Assembly (NCBI GenBank): GCA_963842525.1
Contig: CAWJGT010000021.1
Coordinates: 41,187 to 105,186 of the forward strand
Source of the DNA: an uncultured Holophagales bacterium
GTDB taxonomy: Bacteria > Acidobacteriota > Thermoanaerobaculia > Multivoradales > UBA5704
Length of the DNA stretch: 64,000 nt
Reading direction: 5' to 3'
Both the position numbers and the translations under genes were made by a program. Of this stretch, positions 19,979 through 25,945 are shown piece after piece. How positions within the stretch are numbered: the first letter of the stretch is position 1; each line of letters starts with the position of its first letter. The notes beneath the pieces were generated by a model. It was not told where the DNA came from. It did not search any database and saw only the letters and a program-made list of their open reading frames with translations.

Positions 19979-20995
19979 GCCCGGCGTGGCCATGAGCGCA
20001 CCCGGCGCACCCGGCACCGCCTCGCAATACTGGGCCTGCTTGCCGATCACGGCGTACGGGCAGGCGGCCTGTTCGAGCAGGTAGAGGACCGCGGCGCGGT
20101 TGCGGGCGGTCTCGGCCGGGATCACCTCGTCCGGCGGATAAAAGCCCGGCGAGGAGCTCACCGGGTACATCTCGAAGGTGTAGGCAACGGACAGGTCAGC
20201 CTCACCTGGACCGCGGCGAGCGGCGCGAACCTGTACCGCGTCCACCGCGCCACGGTGAGCGGCGGGCCCTACACGACGATCCAGAGCAACCTCACCGGCA
20301 CGAGCTTCACCGACACCGGACTGACCAACGGGACAACCTATTACTACGTGGTGACCGCGACCAATGGAGTGGGGGAGGGGGCGAATTCCAACGAAGCGTC
20401 GGCCACGCCGGTTGTTCCGCCGACCGTCGTGACCTTCACCTCGGCCGCCTCCCACGACGGCTGGGTGCTCGAATCGTCCGAGGCCTCCAACGCCGGCGGC
20501 TCGATCGATGCGACCGCCAGCACGACCAGCGCCCTGCGGGTGGGCGACGCGACCAGCGACCGCCAGTACAAGTCCGTCGTCTCGTTCAACACCTCGTCGA
20601 TCCCCGACGGCGCCACGATCCTTTCGGTGACCCTGCGCCTGCGCCGCGGCACATCCTCCGGCACCAGTCCGTTCACCACCCACGGCACCTGTTGGGCCGA
20701 CGTGCAGACGGGGAGCTTCTCGGGCTCGACGACGCTCCAGACGGGCGACTTCCAGGCCACGGCGACCGTGGTCCAGGCGGCGAGCCTCGGCAACGCCGCC
20801 TCGAACGGGAGTTGGTCGGAAGGCAGCTTGAACGCATCAGGTCTCGCGGCGATCGACAAGACGGGCACGACGCAGATGAGGGTCTATTTCAATCTCGACG
20901 ACAACGACGACGGAGGCAACGACTACATCGGCTACTACTCCGGCAACAACTCGACTTCGGCGAACCGGCCGCAGCTCGTGGTGACGTACCAATAG
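19979..20995 (+). pseudogene. Rearranged remnant of a third M14 carboxypeptidase-FN3-DNRLRE-like gene (5' part deleted, ~200-bp segment inverted)
   Basis: Minus strand 20182->19979 reads YTFEMYP...ALMATPG; plus strand from 20183 reads GNGQVSLTW...RPQLVVTYQ, collinear with the paralogs at 26033 and 28243. Confidence 0.85.
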
Positions 20996-21019
20996 GCCGG
21001 ATCCCAGGAGGAGAAAATC

Positions 21020-22488
21020 ATGCCAAACAGAGGAGAGTGTTCGATGGAAACGAGATTTCTGTTCACCCTGGCCCTCGCGGCCCTGCTGTTCGCACCGGCC
21101 GTGCAGGCGCAGCAGACCTTCGTCACCACCACCGTCGACGAGGCCGACGGGTCCTGCGACGACGGCGACTGCTCGCTGCGCGATGCCGTCGCCCTGGCCC
21201 CCCCGGCACCACCGTCGTCGTGCCTCCCGGAACGTACGTCCTCACCCTGGGGCAGATCACGATCGACAAGAACCTGGCCATCGAGGGGAGTGACACCCGC
21301 ACCACGATCATCGACGGCAACGATGCCAGCCGGATCTTCGAGACCGCACCCGGCACCCAGGTCGTGTTCCGAGCCCTCACCCTGACCCGGGGCAATGCCG
21401 CCGGAGACGGCGGAGCGGTCCTGAGCCAGGGTGCTGCATTGGTCCAGTTCTGCACGGTCAAGGACAACACCGCGAGCGGCGAGGGCGGCGGTGTCGCGGC
21501 CGGCGGTGATTTGTCCGTCGACTTTTCGACCTTCAGCGGCAACAGAGCTTTCATCGGAGGTGCGATCGTCCGCGTTGCTCCAAGCGATCAGACGATCTCC
21601 AACAGTACCTTCAGCGGCAACGTCGCCCAAGCCTTCGGGGGTGCTTGGACCTGTGGCAACGGTGCCTTCCCAGGGACTCTCGACCTGTTGAACAGCACCT
21701 TCACAGGCAACGAGGCCGGCAGTGTCGATGCGTTGGACCTCGGTTGCGATGACACGGTCACCACTGTCGCCAACACCATCTTTGCCGAAAACGGCAGCGA
21801 TGCTGTGCAAGACTGCGCCTTCGCTGGCGGTAGCAACATAGAGACGACGAGCCACGTCCTCGGCAGCGACGGCAGCTGCACGTTGGGCGGCCCCGGCGAC
21901 CTGCCGAACACCGATGCTCTCCTCGGCCCGCTGGCGAACAACGGCTTTTTCACCGACACCCACCTCCCCGGGGCCGGCAGCCCGGCAATCGACGCCGGGG
22001 ATGCCGCCGTGTGCGACGCGGCCCCCGTCGGCGGCCAGGACCAGCGCTTCGTCTTCCGGCCCCAGGGCGCAGGCTGCGACATCGGTTCCGTCGAGGTCGA
22101 GGTCATTGCTGCCCCCGACGACGACGGCGTCGCCAACGACGTCGACAACTGTCCGACGGTTGCCAATCCCGGCCAGCAGAACTTCGACAACGACGCCTTC
22201 GGCGACGCCTGCGACAACGACCTCGACAACGACGGGAAGACGAACAACCACGACGTTTGCGACTTCACGCCCGCGGGCCAGGTGGTCGGCAAGCTCACCG
22301 GCTGCTCGATCGCCGAGCTCTGTCCGTGCGACGGTCCGCTCAGCTCACACCACGGTTGGCACAACCATGCCCAGTACGTGAGCTGCGTGACCGTGATGGC
22401 GACCGCCTTCCGGCTGGAGCACCTGATCACGACCCAGCAGAAGGTGCAGGTCATCAACGCCGCCGCGCAATCGAGCTGCGGCCGGTAA
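21020..22488 (+). CDS. Secreted CSLREA-domain / beta-helix (choice-of-anchor Q-like) / thrombospondin type-3 repeat protein; frameshift in the C-run near 21200
   Basis: Signal peptide, DGDCSLRDAV, repeated NSTFSGN, LGPLANNG..THLP..GSPAIDAG, DQR..CDIGSVE, DNCP..ANPGQ..D..GDACD; start may be 21044. Confidence 0.85.
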
Positions 22489-22516
22489 GGGAGCCAACCA
22501 TTTGAGAGCAACCCGG

Positions 22517-22550
22517 GCCGGGCCCTTGCGAGGGCCCGGCTCTTTTCTTC
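22517..22550 (+). terminator. Rho-independent terminator
   Basis: gccgggccct-tgcg-agggcccggc followed by tcttttctt. Confidence 0.75.
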
Positions 22551-22556
22551 ATCCCA

Positions 22557-22660
22557 CGGCCCAACGGGCCGGGAGAGCATAGCCCAGGGATGAGGCCGAA
22601 GGCCGATTCCCTGGGTCAACAGGCCCCCGCAAATCCAGCGGCCTGAAAGGCCGCGAGAGC
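22557..22660. repeat. REP unit (ggcccaacgggcc / cccaggg..ccctggg / gcggcctgaaaggccgc)
   Basis: Near-identical copy at 24667-24768; inverted copy split by the IS110 at 22828-22894 and 24448-24480. Confidence 0.85.
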
Positions 22661-22662
22661 TT

Positions 22663-22815
22663 TCAATCCCAGACGTAGCGCTCGTCAAATTCGATTCCAT
22701 AGGCCTCGAGGAACGCACGGAGCTCCTCTTGAAACGACTTGACCCGGTGATGCTCGCGTTGGTTGCGGATGTAGGTCCGAACGTCTTCGACTTGCGATTG
22801 GCTCACCGAGAAGAC
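22663..22815 (-). pseudogene. tnpA: C-terminal fragment of an IS200-like Y1 (REP-associated) tyrosine transposase
   Basis: FSVSQSQVEDVRTYIRNQREHHRVKSFQEE...FDERYVWD, including the catalytic-Tyr motif YIxNQ; no HUH N-terminus; REP units on both sides. Confidence 0.8.
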
Positions 22816-22977
22816 TGCGGAGAGATTCTCGCGGCCTTTCAGGCCGCCAGGAGGTGGGCGTTCGTCGACCCAGGGCATCGGCCTGCGGCCTCAGATGCTA
22901 TGCAGGGCGGGGATGCAAAAGCGGGTCGCCGGTTGTATGTTTCGGGGGAACTTTAGCGGTTAGAAAGGAGAACCCCG

Positions 22978-24114
22978 ATGAACCAGACAACCCGCATTGC
23001 AGAGTCTACGCGAACGGAGGCGGTGTTACATATGGCCCTGGAGCTCGGCGCCAGCGAGTGGAAGCTGGGGTTTGGTGTAGAGGCTGGACGGAGGGCAAGT
23101 CAGCGGACAGTTGCAGCCGGGGACCTTGCCGGGCTGATGCTGGAGATCGCGCGGGCCAAACATCGCCTTGGCGTGCCGGAGTCGGCTCGGGTGGTGAGTT
23201 GCTACGAGGCCGGACGGGATGGATTCTGGCTCCACCGGTTCCTGCTGTCGGAGGGAGTGGAAAACGTTGTCATGGACTCCTCGAGCATCGAGGTGAATCG
23301 GCGGCATCGCCGGGCCAAGACGGATGGGGTGGACGTGGAGAAGTTGCTGTCGTTGTTGATCCGTTACGAGCGCGGGGAGAAGAAGGTGTTCGGGGTAGCG
23401 CACGCGCCGACCCCCGAGCAGGAGGACGAGCGTCACCTGGCTCGGGAGCTTGAGTCTCTGAAGCAGGAGCGCACGGCCCACACCAATCGGATCAAGGGCC
23501 TGCTGGCCAGCGTGGGGGCTCGGGGGGTGAAAGTCGGCAAGGGCTTTCTGCAGCAGCTGGATCAGGCGAGGCAGTGGAACGGCGAGAGGCTGCTGGCGAG
23601 CTTGCGGGAGCGTTTGAGGCGAGAGGGCGAGCGTCTGGCTGTGCTGGAGAGTCAGATTGCCGAGCTCGAGCGGTTTCGCCGGACGGCCAGCGTGGAAGCG
23701 ACGGAGAAGGTGCAGCGGCTGCAAGAGCTCAAGGGGATCGGAGGCAACAGTGGTTGGCTGTTCGTGGTGGAGTTCTTCGGCTGGCGGCAGTTCCGCAACC
23801 GCCGTGAGGTGGCCGGTTTGGCGGGTCTGACGCCGATGCCTTATCAGAGCGGTGACACGGTCAACCACGAACAAGGGATCAGCAAGGCGGGGAATCGTCG
23901 GGTCCGGGCGATGGCGATCGAGATCGCTTGGGGCTGGTTGCGCTTCCAACCGCAGAGTCGCCTGAGCTTGTGGTTTCAGGAGCGTTATGGTCCTGGGAGC
24001 CGCCGATCTCGGCGGGTGGGGATCGTGGCCCTCGCCCGCAAGCTGCTGATCGCGCTGTGGCGCTATCTGGACTACGGTGTGATTCCTGAGGGTGCTGAGC
24101 TGAAGACGAAGTAA
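22978..24114 (+). CDS. IS110-family transposase/recombinase
   Basis: DEDD-like N-domain (ALELG, CYEAG, KTDGVD), C-domain GIG...AGLTPMPYQSG..ISKAGNRRVR..VALARKL; RBS aaaggag. Confidence 0.95.
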   Translation: MNQTTRIAESTRTEAVLHMALELGASEWKLGFGVEAGRRASQRTVAAGDLAGLMLEIARAKHRLGVPESARVVSCYEAGRDGFWLHRFLLSEGVENVVMDSSSIEVNRRHRRAKTDGVDVEKLLSLLIRYERGEKKVFGVAHAPTPEQEDERHLARELESLKQERTAHTNRIKGLLASVGARGVKVGKGFLQQLDQARQWNGERLLASLRERLRREGERLAVLESQIAELERFRRTASVEATEKVQRLQELKGIGGNSGWLFVVEFFGWRQFRNRREVAGLAGLTPMPYQSGDTVNHEQGISKAGNRRVRAMAIEIAWGWLRFQPQSRLSLWFQERYGPGSRRSRRVGIVALARKLLIALWRYLDYGVIPEGAELKTK

Positions 24115-24119
24115 TCTGG

Positions 24120-24340
24120 GAGGAAAAAGCTCGGAGAGAAACGACTGGTGGAGCGTGCCCGGCCCAGGGCTTGGTTCGGCTTCCGAACCGTTCTCTCAGA
24201 TGGGGCCGCTCCGAGAGCTTGCCTGAGTCGCTCGACAGCGCATGCTGCATTTGGTGTCCTGACCCAAAGAGGTCAGCACGGATAGAAGCTGGAAAGGACG
24301 ACTCCCCAGGTCCCTGCACACTCCGGGCAAGCGCCAGACG
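24120..24340 (+). ncRNA. Predicted bridge/seek RNA of the IS110 element (boundaries approximate)
   Basis: Two internal loops flanking hairpins: cccagggct (24163-71) and ctcag (24195-99) match the target; gcattt (24247-52, partial) and atagaag (24282-88) match the donor junction. Confidence 0.7.
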
Positions 24341-24447
24341 GACTGAGAACCAAGAAGCGAGAAAACCGGTGACAGGAGGGGGGCCAGGAAAGGGAAAACG
24401 ACGAACCACCACCCCGAGACGCTTGACACCGGTGGCCCACATAGAAG

Positions 24448-24768
24448 CCCTGAGCTATGTTCTCCCGGCCCGTTGGGCCGGATGGAGACAACCCTATACA
24501 TCCGGCCCGGCTCGTGCGCGGCCTCGCTACCGTCACCTGGCGGCGAATGCTGCCGAAACGCTCGGGGCGGTTTTCGGCTGAATCGAGCCCTGGAGATCGA
24601 GGATCATGCGCGCGGGCCACGTGGCCGGCCCGTCCGGCCCAACGGGCGGTGCATGGCGAACCCGTCCGGCCCAACGGGCCGGGAGAGCATAGCCCAGGGA
24701 TGAGGCCGCAGGCCGATGCCCTGGGTCAACAGGCCCCATAAATCCGGCGGCCTGAAAGGCCGCGAGAA
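24448..24768. repeat. REP cluster: right half of the interrupted REP plus a further full unit
   Basis: ccctgagctatgttctcccggcccgttgggccg, then partial and full cggcccaacgggccgggagagcatagcccaggg...gcggcctgaaaggccgcgag. Confidence 0.8.
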
Positions 24769-25066
24769 ATCTTCCCTAAACTCCCCCAACCAAAGGTTTT
24801 CGCAGGACCCCCTACCCAGAGGGGCAGGCCCTCCCTCCTCTCTAGAGTGGATCTTGCCTCCTCTCCAGAGAGGAGGCGGAGGCCTCGAAAAATCATCGCT
24901 AGAGAGGATGGTCACGCCGCGTCGTATGCGCTAGCCTGAGCTGCAATCAGGAGCAGCCTGAACGAAAGGCCAAGGAGGGGGAGCTCCCCCGGCTTGACGA
25001 CACAACGAAGGGAGGCCAGGCATGATCAATTGCTTGGCAGCTCTTTTTTCGGAAAGGAGATGGCCG

Positions 25067-25945
25067 ATGAGCGCATCCAGATGGTTCGTGTGCACGGTTG
25101 TGACCGCGATTTCCCTGATTGGCGCGGGATCGGCGACGGCGGACGACTTCGTGGTGCCGGCCGGAGGAGGCTGGATGGTCGATACCGTATCGGTCGTCGG
25201 CCAGTATTTCAACGGGCCCGGCGGCCCTGCCCCCACGGTCCGCGTGACCTTCTACGACAACGCGGGGACGTTGCCCGGATCGGCCATCGCCGCCTGCGAC
25301 TACCCAGCGATCGTTCCGGTCGATGCCGGAGGCAGCTTTACGCTCAGCCTGGACTCCGCGTGCATGCTGGCGCCGGGAACCTACTGGGTTGCGGTGGTGG
25401 CGAACATGGACTTCTCCTCGGGGGGCCAGTGGGGTTGGGGCATGCGCACGGCCACTTCGAACAACCCCGCAGCGTGGCGAAACCCGGGCGGTGGCTTTGG
25501 GACCCCGTGCGGGAGCTTCGGGGCTCGCGGCGCAACCTGCGGTAACGTACCAGAGGCGCCCGACCCGTTGTTCTCCCTCTCCGGCGTCGTGAACGAGGTC
25601 GACAACTGCCCGCTGGTCGCCAACCCCGGCCAGGAAGACTTCGACCACGACGGCATCGGCGACGCCTGCGACAACGACGTCGACAACGACGGGCACTCGA
25701 ACAACCACGACATCTGCGACTTCACCCCCCCGGGCACGGTCGTCGGCCGGCTCACCGGCTGCTCGATCGCCGAGCTCTGTCCGTGCGACGGTCCGCTCAG
25801 CTCACACCACGGTTGGCACAACCATGCCCAGTACGTGAGCTGCGTGACCGTGATGGCGACCGCCTTCCGGCTGGAGCGCCTGATCACGACCCAGCAGAAG
25901 GTGCAGATCATCAACGCCGCCGCCCAATCGAGCTGCGGCCGGTAG
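25067..25945 (+). CDS. Secreted protein with thrombospondin type-3 repeats and a conserved Cys/His C-terminal domain
   Basis: RBS aaaggag; signal peptide; ADDFVVP beta-sandwich-like N-domain; [24 protein letters not shown]; C-terminus nearly identical to that of 21020..22488. Confidence 0.8.

Follow-up and report, generated by a model that had tools for sequence, protein, structure and literature searches.

How does an insertion sequence (IS) come to occupy one defined position within a repeat, and may the instruction for this choice be an RNA encoded in the non-coding end of the element itself? This question is raised by a locus in a stretch of 64,000 nucleotides (nt) from an uncultured Holophagales bacterium (Acidobacteriota; Thermoanaerobaculia; GenBank assembly GCA_963842525.1, contig CAWJGT010000021.1, positions 41,187 to 105,186 of the forward strand), the whole of which is referred to here as the window. 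There, an intact transposase gene and a right non-coding end of 333 nt (24115-24447) belong to an IS110-family element that interrupts a repetitive extragenic palindromic (REP) sequence. An initial annotation of the window, made from the letters and a list of open reading frames (ORFs), had proposed that this end carries guides resembling those of a bridge RNA and programmed for the REP in which the element sits. Here, we have compared the region with the other copies in the same genome and with homologs in other genomes. It is very likely that positions 24142-24340 encode the bridge RNA (seekRNA) of an IS1111-group element inserted at an AG dinucleotide in a REP. The evidence that carries this conclusion is comparative: the guides change together with the insertion sites, both among three subfamilies in one genome and among homologs from several phyla, and the helices that enclose them covary.

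Target guides in three subfamilies of one genome

The whole IS occupies 22895-24447 on the plus strand of the window, which is also the transposase strand and the strand of all features described below unless stated otherwise, and measures 1553 bp including the right-hand AG. The left junction reads ggcctcAG/ATGCTATGCAGG (the slash marks the element boundary; AG at 22893-94) and the right junction CCCACATAGAAG/ccctgagctatg (AG at 24446-47). On the minus strand the two junctions read ctcagggCTgaggcc and catagcatCTtctatg and the core is CT, and the CT-core junctions proposed initially fit these limits. The same limits are common to all full copies in the genome of the window (9.95 Mb, 34 contigs), which fall into three subfamilies: subfamily A with five full copies of approximately 100% identity, a 5′-truncated copy and a 58-bp right-end remnant, subfamily B with two copies of 87-88% identity, and subfamily C with four copies of 77%. 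AG is present at both junctions in 11/11 full copies, and the ends ATGCTATGCAGGGCG and CCACATAGAAG are common to A, B, and C, whereas the insertion sites differ, being ggcctcAG/ccctgggc (a REP) in A, ctcAG/ctccgccc in B, and ataaAG/cctggcgc in C.

Two segments of the right end match these sites. The 5′ target guide GCCCAGGGCU (24162-24171) has the reverse-complement sequence of the AG core together with the adjacent 8 nt of the right flank, and would pair over these 10 nt with the plus strand of the target. The 3′ target guide CUCAG (24195-24199) repeats the sequence of 3 nt of the left flank and the AG, and would pair with the minus strand, so that the two guides overlap at AG. The next two bases, AU (24200-01), equal those at the start of the left end, and the segment that includes them spans 24195-24201. 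When the right ends of the subfamilies are aligned, the 10 nt after the conserved GGAGCGUGCCCG are GCCCAGGGCU in A, GGGCGGAGCU in B, and GCGCCAGGCU in C, and in each subfamily the AG with the adjoining 8 nt of its own right flank has this segment as its exact reverse complement (10/10 in all three). Likewise, the 5 nt before the conserved AUGGGGCCGCUCC, CUCAG in both A and B and UAAAG in subfamily C, in each case equal 3 nt of the own left flank with AG (5/5). The right flank ccctgggc, which gives the 10/10 match, is found in 4/5 full copies of subfamily A; the copy in the window has ccctgagc and deviates from the guide at one base, 24453.

Exactly 12 target-arm modules were detected in the genome, all of them inside IS copies. 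The truncated copy of subfamily A (G000 C9:1835724-1836563, 840 bp) has kept the whole RNA region and the right end beside the usual REP flank, and could supply guide RNA in trans. The 58-bp remnant (G000 C12:20672-20729) lies beside the same REP flank.

Target guides and flanks in homologs

A scan of one genome per species gave 40 homologous loci, with identities from 90% in metagenome-assembled genomes (MAGs) of Thermoanaerobaculia down to approximately 50% in delta-proteobacterial, Chloroflexota, Planctomycetota, Armatimonadota, and other records. A profile of the RNA region of A, B, and C found a related stretch downstream of the gene in 34/40 loci. The origin from an under-sampled lineage that had been supposed for the element holds insofar as its nearest relatives are MAGs of Thermoanaerobaculia/Acidobacteriota, but the same RNA family is present in several other phyla.

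Anchors for the guides could be placed in 36 elements; a right flank was available for 33 of them (30 distinct) and a left flank for 27 (24 distinct). The anchor-based extraction has weak spots: loci L031 and L032 were mis-anchored, L025, L052, and L053 fell outside one range filter, the remaining loci were viewed by eye, and the donor motif was not found at up to one mismatch in L030, L037, L039, L043, L046, L048, and L058. Among the 30 distinct right flanks, the mean contiguous complementarity was 5.13 nt with the own RNA and 2.90 nt with the RNAs of other elements, and runs of at least 6 nt occurred in 15/30 own pairs versus 21/870 cross pairs. Among the 24 distinct left flanks, the own mean was 2.42 versus a cross mean of 0.58. 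Both differences had permutation p <= 1e-4, in controls that ignore the relatedness of the elements. The initial annotation had named a lack of covariation between matches and targets in homologs as the finding that would speak against it; both target guides do covary, with the three targets in the genome of the window and with approximately 30 distinct targets elsewhere.

In the oriented loci, the matches of a target-arm model lie downstream of the transposase match and on the same strand, except in L024, which has a second match on the opposite strand, and in L037 and L039, whose matches lie well away from the matched gene. Extra target-arm matches outside the element that defines the locus were seen at L024:4361-4428 (minus strand) and L039:5132-5199 (plus strand), which indicates a MAG with several nearby copies, including one in the opposite orientation.

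Donor guides and handshake bases

The second half of the RNA region contains segments that match the ends of the element itself. In the 5′ donor guide (24247-24252), the four bases GCAU (24247-50) are reverse-complementary to ATGC, bases 1-4 of the left end, and would pair with them; the UU that follows faces the core (U.G, U-A). GCAU or its equivalent is exact in 17/22 elements (permutation p 2e-5) and follows a variant left end exactly in five of the nine elements listed with a left end other than ATGC, i.e., L026, L027, L028, L040, and L041, with ATAA, ATCC (twice), ATAC, and AAAC among them. The misses are by one base in L021 (which has an ATGC left end), L029, L047, and L049, and by two bases in L044, whose left end is possibly misdetected. 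The 3′ donor guide AUAGAAG, which together with the next base C occupies 24282-24289, has the same sequence as the final 7 nt of the right end, AG included, and would pair with the minus strand over this stretch (5 nt and the AG). The guide equals the right-end terminus in 29/30 elements, including L046, in which the variant terminus ATGGAAG is accompanied by the same change in its own RNA; the sole miss is L049, whose terminus ATAAAAG is not followed by its RNA. The assignment of atagaag as a donor guide in the initial annotation is therefore upheld.

The bases 3′ of both 3′ guides match the other DNA partner, as would be expected of handshake bases. C24289 equals the first base of the right flank, and the base after AUAGAAG equals the first right-flank base in 25/29 elements, the other four having U or G, which are wobble-compatible (p 1e-5). 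The AU after the 3′ target guide equals the AT of the left end in most rows.

Predicted structure of the RNA

The predicted bridge/seek RNA core spans 24142-24340 (approximately 199 nt) and is enclosed by a terminal stem P1 (24142-49 with 24333-40); the conservation detected by nhmmer begins at 24142. Hence, an RNA was correctly placed in the 3′ non-coding end, but it covers this part and not the whole of 24115-24447. Its target-binding arm (24150-24212) is formed by stem P2 (24150-60 with 24203-12, U24156 bulged), whose internal loop holds both target guides around the hairpin 24173-24189. Its donor-binding arm (24217-24332) is formed by the long-range stem P3 (24217-23 with 24326-32) and a multi-branch loop with the hairpins Ha (24229-40), donor hairpin (24254-79), and Hc (24296-24313). 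The strings noticed initially are all found where they had been placed (cccagggct 24163-24171, ctcag 24195-24199, gcattt 24247-24252, atagaag 24282-24288), as are the two hairpins ggttcg (24173-78)...cgaacc (24184-89) and ctgacc (24259-64)...ggtcag (24271-76). The idea of two loops is borne out by the presence of two arms, except that the donor guides lie in a multi-branch loop and not in a simple internal loop.

For each helix, the duplex energy of each sequence's own strands was compared with that of cross-paired partners by permutation. All seven helices tested (P1, P2, the target distal hairpin, P3, Ha, the donor distal hairpin, and Hc) were more favorable in energy when formed from own strands than from cross-paired ones (p 2e-4 to 5e-4), as illustrated by P1 (own -10.39, cross -6.77, p 5e-4) and P3 (own -11.50, cross -6.20 kcal/mol, p 2e-4), with p 5e-4 for each of Ha, the donor distal hairpin, and Hc. 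These permutations provide the support for the donor arm, and the target arm is also covered by a covariance model. This model (R2) was seeded with the 15 of 32 sequences that belong to the class without the bulge and was searched over 43 sources. In the resulting alignment, which is fitted to the model and leans towards structure, 86.0% of the target-arm cells were paired, compared to 69.3% in shuffled controls (0/500) and 43-57% in slid controls; the covariation score was 0.403 versus 0.163, and 13/18 pairs had changes on both sides. An earlier model (R1), seeded with all 32 sequences, had suffered from a one-column register clash between the two classes (75.5% paired, 62.7% after a slide of -1) and was replaced. 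The unconstrained minimum free energy (MFE) fold of 24142-24340 reproduces P1, P2, P3, and both distal hairpins, and RNAalifold on MAFFT alignments recovered the structure in part only.

Observations against the bridge RNA and alternative explanations

Several observations weigh against a bridge RNA at this locus, besides the neglect of relatedness in the permutation controls and the lean of the R2 alignment, and they are considered here together with the explanations that they would favor. One such explanation is that the guide matches are a coincidence in a GC-rich and REP-rich genome. When 24115-24430 was shuffled 2000 times with its dinucleotides preserved, exact core-spanning matches of at least 7 nt to the target arose in 820/2000 shuffles, to the donor in 187/2000, and to both in 71/2000 (~0.04), and the signal in the single sequence is thus weak. 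Among the distinct right flanks of homologs, 15/30 show runs of 4 nt or less; three of the short-run flanks (L029, L035, and L044) have one internal mismatch, and some, e.g., L052, L031, and L032, may be misplaced ends or decayed copies. The comparative evidence from other copies and homologs nevertheless places the matches far beyond chance, and coincidence, being contradicted by the covariation with three in-genome and approximately 30 foreign targets as well as by the donor, handshake, and structure tests, is hardly credible.

A second group of observations concerns the existence of an RNA and its strand. In a scan of the linear element, no promoter-like site of the sigma-70 type was detected, and no intrinsic terminator was found outside the gene, with one terminator-like site inside it. 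Six public sequencing runs contained 0.05-0.20 of the sequence words searched, as short contigs 90-99% alike, which come from diverged relatives and from which no conclusion on expression or habitat is drawn; the two true RNA runs among them contained parts of the transposase gene only, in contigs that cannot show RNA ends. (Contigs in two runs skipped 22892 to 24446 with short sides of 22-26 nt; these are probably empty REPs of relatives and were not used as evidence.) A search of Rfam 15 over 22500-24900 in E-value mode returned no bridge RNA family, only sub-threshold matches at chance level, and single-sequence folds were no better than those of shuffles (z -0.33 for 24115-24447, z -0.67 for 24140-24320). 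When strands were compared by duplex energy, P1 and P2, which tolerate G.U only on the plus strand, favored that strand (p 2e-4 and 9e-4), the five other helices were neutral or slightly better on the minus strand, and G.U cells exceeded A.C cells by only 58 to 37. The RNA is most likely on the transposase strand, an assignment made because of the known biology of the family.

Such results could be read as signs that the conserved 3′ region acts as DNA or messenger RNA (mRNA), for example, as recombinase-binding sites or a 3′-UTR (untranslated region) stability element, with the guide/flank identities as by-products: the sequencing runs and the promoter scan gave no sign of an RNA, the strand test was mixed, and Rfam had no matching family. 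However, a by-product cannot explain why an internal 10-mer approximately 280 nt from the end varies so as to complement exactly three different flanks within one genome, nor why the same occurs across phyla, and the compensatory changes seen in all seven helices point to a single-stranded molecule that folds. Dependence on RNA has also been demonstrated experimentally for relatives (passages of PMC11187229 and PMC11208160). An action at the DNA or mRNA level alone is accordingly very unlikely.

The donor side leaves somewhat more room for doubt. The donor ends hardly vary, and the covariation of the donor guides therefore rests on few events and is weaker than that on the target side. The 5′ donor guide is only 4 nt long and misses 5/22 elements. 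Of the gcattt proposed initially, GCAU stood as a real 4-nt guide, but the two bases that follow it are variable in homologs and mostly non-complementary to the core, without canonical pairing. It may thus be asked whether the target arm alone is the functional guide, equivalent to the short seekRNA, with the ends read mainly by the protein through the subterminal inverted repeats and the donor 'guides' being structural or protein-binding bases that resemble invariant ends. With ends so nearly invariant, the 29/30 identity of the 3′ donor guide depends on the single covarying event in L046, and the other variant terminus, that of L049, is not followed by the RNA; moreover, the predominant RNA co-purified with the proteins of ISEc11, ISPa11, and ISKpn4 is a short form with two target matches, according to the sections of PMC11187229 on these elements. 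On the other hand, the 4-nt guide follows the left end in five independent variants (p 2e-5), and the base after AUAGAAG tracks the flank in 25/29 elements, which is sensible only if this segment contacts DNA at the crossover. The four helices of the donor arm covary, and many IS1111 elements are reported to have their donor-binding bases within multi-loops (part of PMC11208160). Taken together, a target arm that acts without donor guides is unlikely, and a bridge RNA with both arms at 24142-24340 is the interpretation that we favor.

The way in which such a bridge RNA would work may be outlined by analogy with IS621, ISEc11, and ISPa11, and the same applies to its transcription, its binding by the protein, and the catalysis of recombination. 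The element would excise as a circle joined at AG, the RNA-loaded recombinase would bring the circle junction together with a matching REP, and strand exchange would then take place at AG. Considering the natural covariation of guides and targets, the recombinase may be reprogrammable, as was supposed in the initial annotation.

Ends of the element and transposase

The element is an IS110-family insertion sequence of the IS1111 group, composed of a short left end, the transposase gene, and the long right non-coding end. In keeping with the IS110 family, it inserts site-specifically, lacks terminal inverted repeats, and has one and the same core dinucleotide at its two junctions. The published features of this group are a long right non-coding end, a short left end, and subterminal inverted repeats of 7-17 bp (part of PMC11208160), all of which are present. 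The left end (22895-22977, 83 nt) begins with ATGC, the donor bases that would be read by the 4-nt guide, and the sequence AG followed by AT(G/A/C)CTATG is kept in nearly all homologs. The left copy of the subterminal inverted repeat is CTATGCAGGGC (22898-22908). In the right-end terminus (24423-24447), an outward-facing TTGACA (24423-28) is followed by the inverted repeat GGCCCACATAG (24434-44) and by a terminal A with the core AG. Compared to the reverse complement of GGCCCACATAG, CTATGCAGGGC matches at 8/11 positions, the first five being perfect, which makes an imperfect 11-bp repeat placed 3 nt in from each end. TTGACA followed by CATAGAAG at the right end is kept in nearly all homologs listed.

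The outward TTGACA lies 19 nt from the right end and, in a circularised element, would be 17-18 nt upstream of GATGCT spanning the junction (24423-24428 with 22895-22900). By analogy with the junction promoters of IS621 and ISEc11, it may be the -35 element of a similar promoter. The main difference among the five copies of subfamily A is a G run at approximately 22908-22915 (GGGG or GGGGG; element length 1552-1556 bp), and subfamilies B and C have longer G runs at this position.

The transposase (recombinase) gene (22978-24114) is intact, encodes 378 amino acids (aa), and is preceded by a Shine-Dalgarno-like AAGGAG; together with the five near-identical copies, this agrees with the description of the element as complete. 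The protein matches the NCBIfam equivalog NF033542 'IS110 family RNA-guided transposase' (183 bits, cut-off 140) and Pfam PF02371 (63.1 bits, cut-off 21.3), whereas Pfam PF01548 (DEDD_Tnp_IS110) remained below its cut-off (22.3 versus 29). Its matches in the PDB, ISCro4 (E 1.7e-6) and IS621 (E 2.6e-5), cover the C-terminal domain only, and its YQSGD aligns with YESGS of ISCro4. Inspection by eye of 25 translated homologs revealed the motifs (A/S)(L/F)ELG, CYEAGRDGFW, and AKTDxxDxxKL. The acidic motifs and the serine may correspond to D11, E60, D102, D105, and S241 of IS621, and we take the Glu of ELG to be at the site of the IS621 Asp D11. In the first of these motifs (residues ~20-24), 24/25 homologs have Glu and only L024 has Asp, as judged by eye. 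This Glu and the PF01548 score below cut-off suggest that the N-terminal domain of the clade is divergent.

The interrupted REP and its neighborhood

The insertion splits a REP into a left half (22864-22894), which ends with ggcctc and the core AG (22893-94) and forms the inverted-repeat pairs I3 and I4 with intact REPs, and a right half (24448-24485), with the flank ccctgagc and the inverted-repeat pairs I1 and I2. The placement of the element in a REP, as noted initially, is confirmed by intact copies at 22557-22627 and 24667-24737, which match the two halves (22864-22893 and 24448-24485). The REP-like repeat measures approximately 71 nt, contains a GC-rich hairpin, and is present in at least three copies within 2.3 kb; the hairpin has a sub-threshold Rfam match to Acido-Lenti-1 (17.7 bits, gathering score 37). 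Both local intact REPs have AT in place of the AG core; genome-wide, AG is the commonest dinucleotide there (11 AG versus 5 AT). Unoccupied AG-core sites are found in the genome for all three types (A, 11; B, 5; C, 14).

A 71-aa ORF (22663-22878, minus strand) lies between two REP copies and adjoins the left end of the IS. It matched no Pfam or NCBIfam family; its C-terminal part, in our estimation, resembles the tail of a Y1 (IS200/RAYT-type) transposase, and if so, it would presumably be the remnant of a REP-associated transposase. The REP/IS cluster is bracketed by two paralogues, the ORFs 20692-22488 and 25022-25945 (both plus strand), which contain thrombospondin type 3 repeats (PF02412) and whose C-terminal ~70 aa are near-identical.

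Comparison with known systems

The closest published parallels are ISPa11, ISEc11, and ISKpn4 (Siddiquee et al. 2024, PMC11187229), which, as described in parts of that paper, also have a DEDD-type transposase followed by a long 3′ non-coding region giving a guide RNA. In the IS1111 seekRNAs presented there, as here, the match to the top strand precedes that to the bottom strand (5′ to 3′), with an overlap at the crossover; ISPa11 likewise targets a REP, with an AG core. RNAs of two size classes, short (82-96 nt) and long (~154 nt), have been mapped downstream of tnp in IS1111 elements (same parts of PMC11187229), sizes that fit the ~63-70 nt target arm within the ~199-nt RNA predicted here. 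The present element differs from these three, with which it was compared by description, in its sequence family and in its host, which is Acidobacteriota-like and not from Proteobacteria, and it is known from sequence alone. The assignment of donor guides and handshake bases by covariation goes beyond what the sections of PMC11187229 on ISPa11, ISEc11, and ISKpn4 contain.

REP-targeting elements of the IS110 family with an AG core are also known from Pseudomonas putida, namely ISPpu9 and ISPpu10, of which ISPpu9 recombines at AG in REPs (part of PMC12288879); the likeness concerns target and core. ISPpu10 is one of six elements named in the legend of Extended Data Fig. 10 of PMC11208160. Unlike ISPpu9, for which additional small RNAs (sRNAs; Asr9 and Ssr9) and modular A/B boxes are described in that part of PMC12288879, the present element showed nothing similar.

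With IS621, the element shares the handshake principle and the general plan of the RNA, as far as these are described in passages of PMC11208160, PMC11208158, and PMC13626964: two modules, in each of which one long and one short guide flank a distal hairpin, address opposite strands, and overlap by a 2-nt core. If read on the minus strand, the correspondence extends to the CT core, to a 5′ guide identical to the left target plus core (8+2), and to a 3′ guide complementary to the core plus right target (2+3) (part of PMC11208158). The handshake bases are located 3′ of the 3′ guides, with the AU of the target loop facing the AT of the donor, and the target is a REP in both cases (parts of PMC11208158 and PMC13626964). 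By contrast, the RNA region follows the gene and belongs to the right end, whereas that of IS621 is described as located in the left end, upstream of the gene. The loop that contains the donor guides is multi-branched and has two additional hairpins, the shorter donor guide is the 5′ one (4 nt), and the subterminal inverted repeats are longer. Protein similarity to IS621 is limited to the C-terminal domain (the E 2.6e-5 match given above), and the first acidic motif is ELG and not one that contains Asp, as judged by eye and presuming the correspondence given above.

Overall, the architecture is of the bridge/seek RNA type already published for IS1111 elements, 93.0% of which have a predicted right-end bridge RNA, often with donor-binding bases in a multi-loop (part of PMC11208160), and it reveals no new mechanism. 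Donor-loop and handshake assignments for IS1111 elements may already be contained in Extended Data Fig. 10c or Supplementary Table 5 of PMC11208160 or in the supplementary figures of PMC11187229.

Implications

Recombinases guided by bridge or seek RNAs are under development as programmable tools for DNA insertion. To our knowledge, nearly all mechanistic work has been carried out on IS110-group elements (IS621 and ISCro4). The present locus provides an annotated example of the IS1111 type, in which guides, core, and handshake bases are assigned at the level of single bases and are backed by covariation. It has a built-in natural control, with three target specificities and one donor module in one genome, and the ~35 homologous RNAs across phyla offer material for a family model. 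For the host, RNA guides that match the REP would explain why these elements occupy one position of REP-like repeats in a 9.9-Mb genome.

A more far-reaching reading, which we offer tentatively and consider somewhat more likely to fail than to hold, is that the three IS1111-type sublineages represent a natural guide-swap series. They share donor ends and a donor loop, have three target loops that each match a different repeat, and leave free AG-core sites of each type in the genome. If their recombinases and RNAs are cross-compatible, one recombinase scaffold could be used with a small library of guides supplied in trans, and, clade-wide, the handshake rule of IS621 would hold for IS1111-type RNAs with a multi-branch loop and only 4 nt on one donor side. 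Should this reading be true, these elements would provide a compact and naturally modular scaffold from Acidobacteriota-like hosts.

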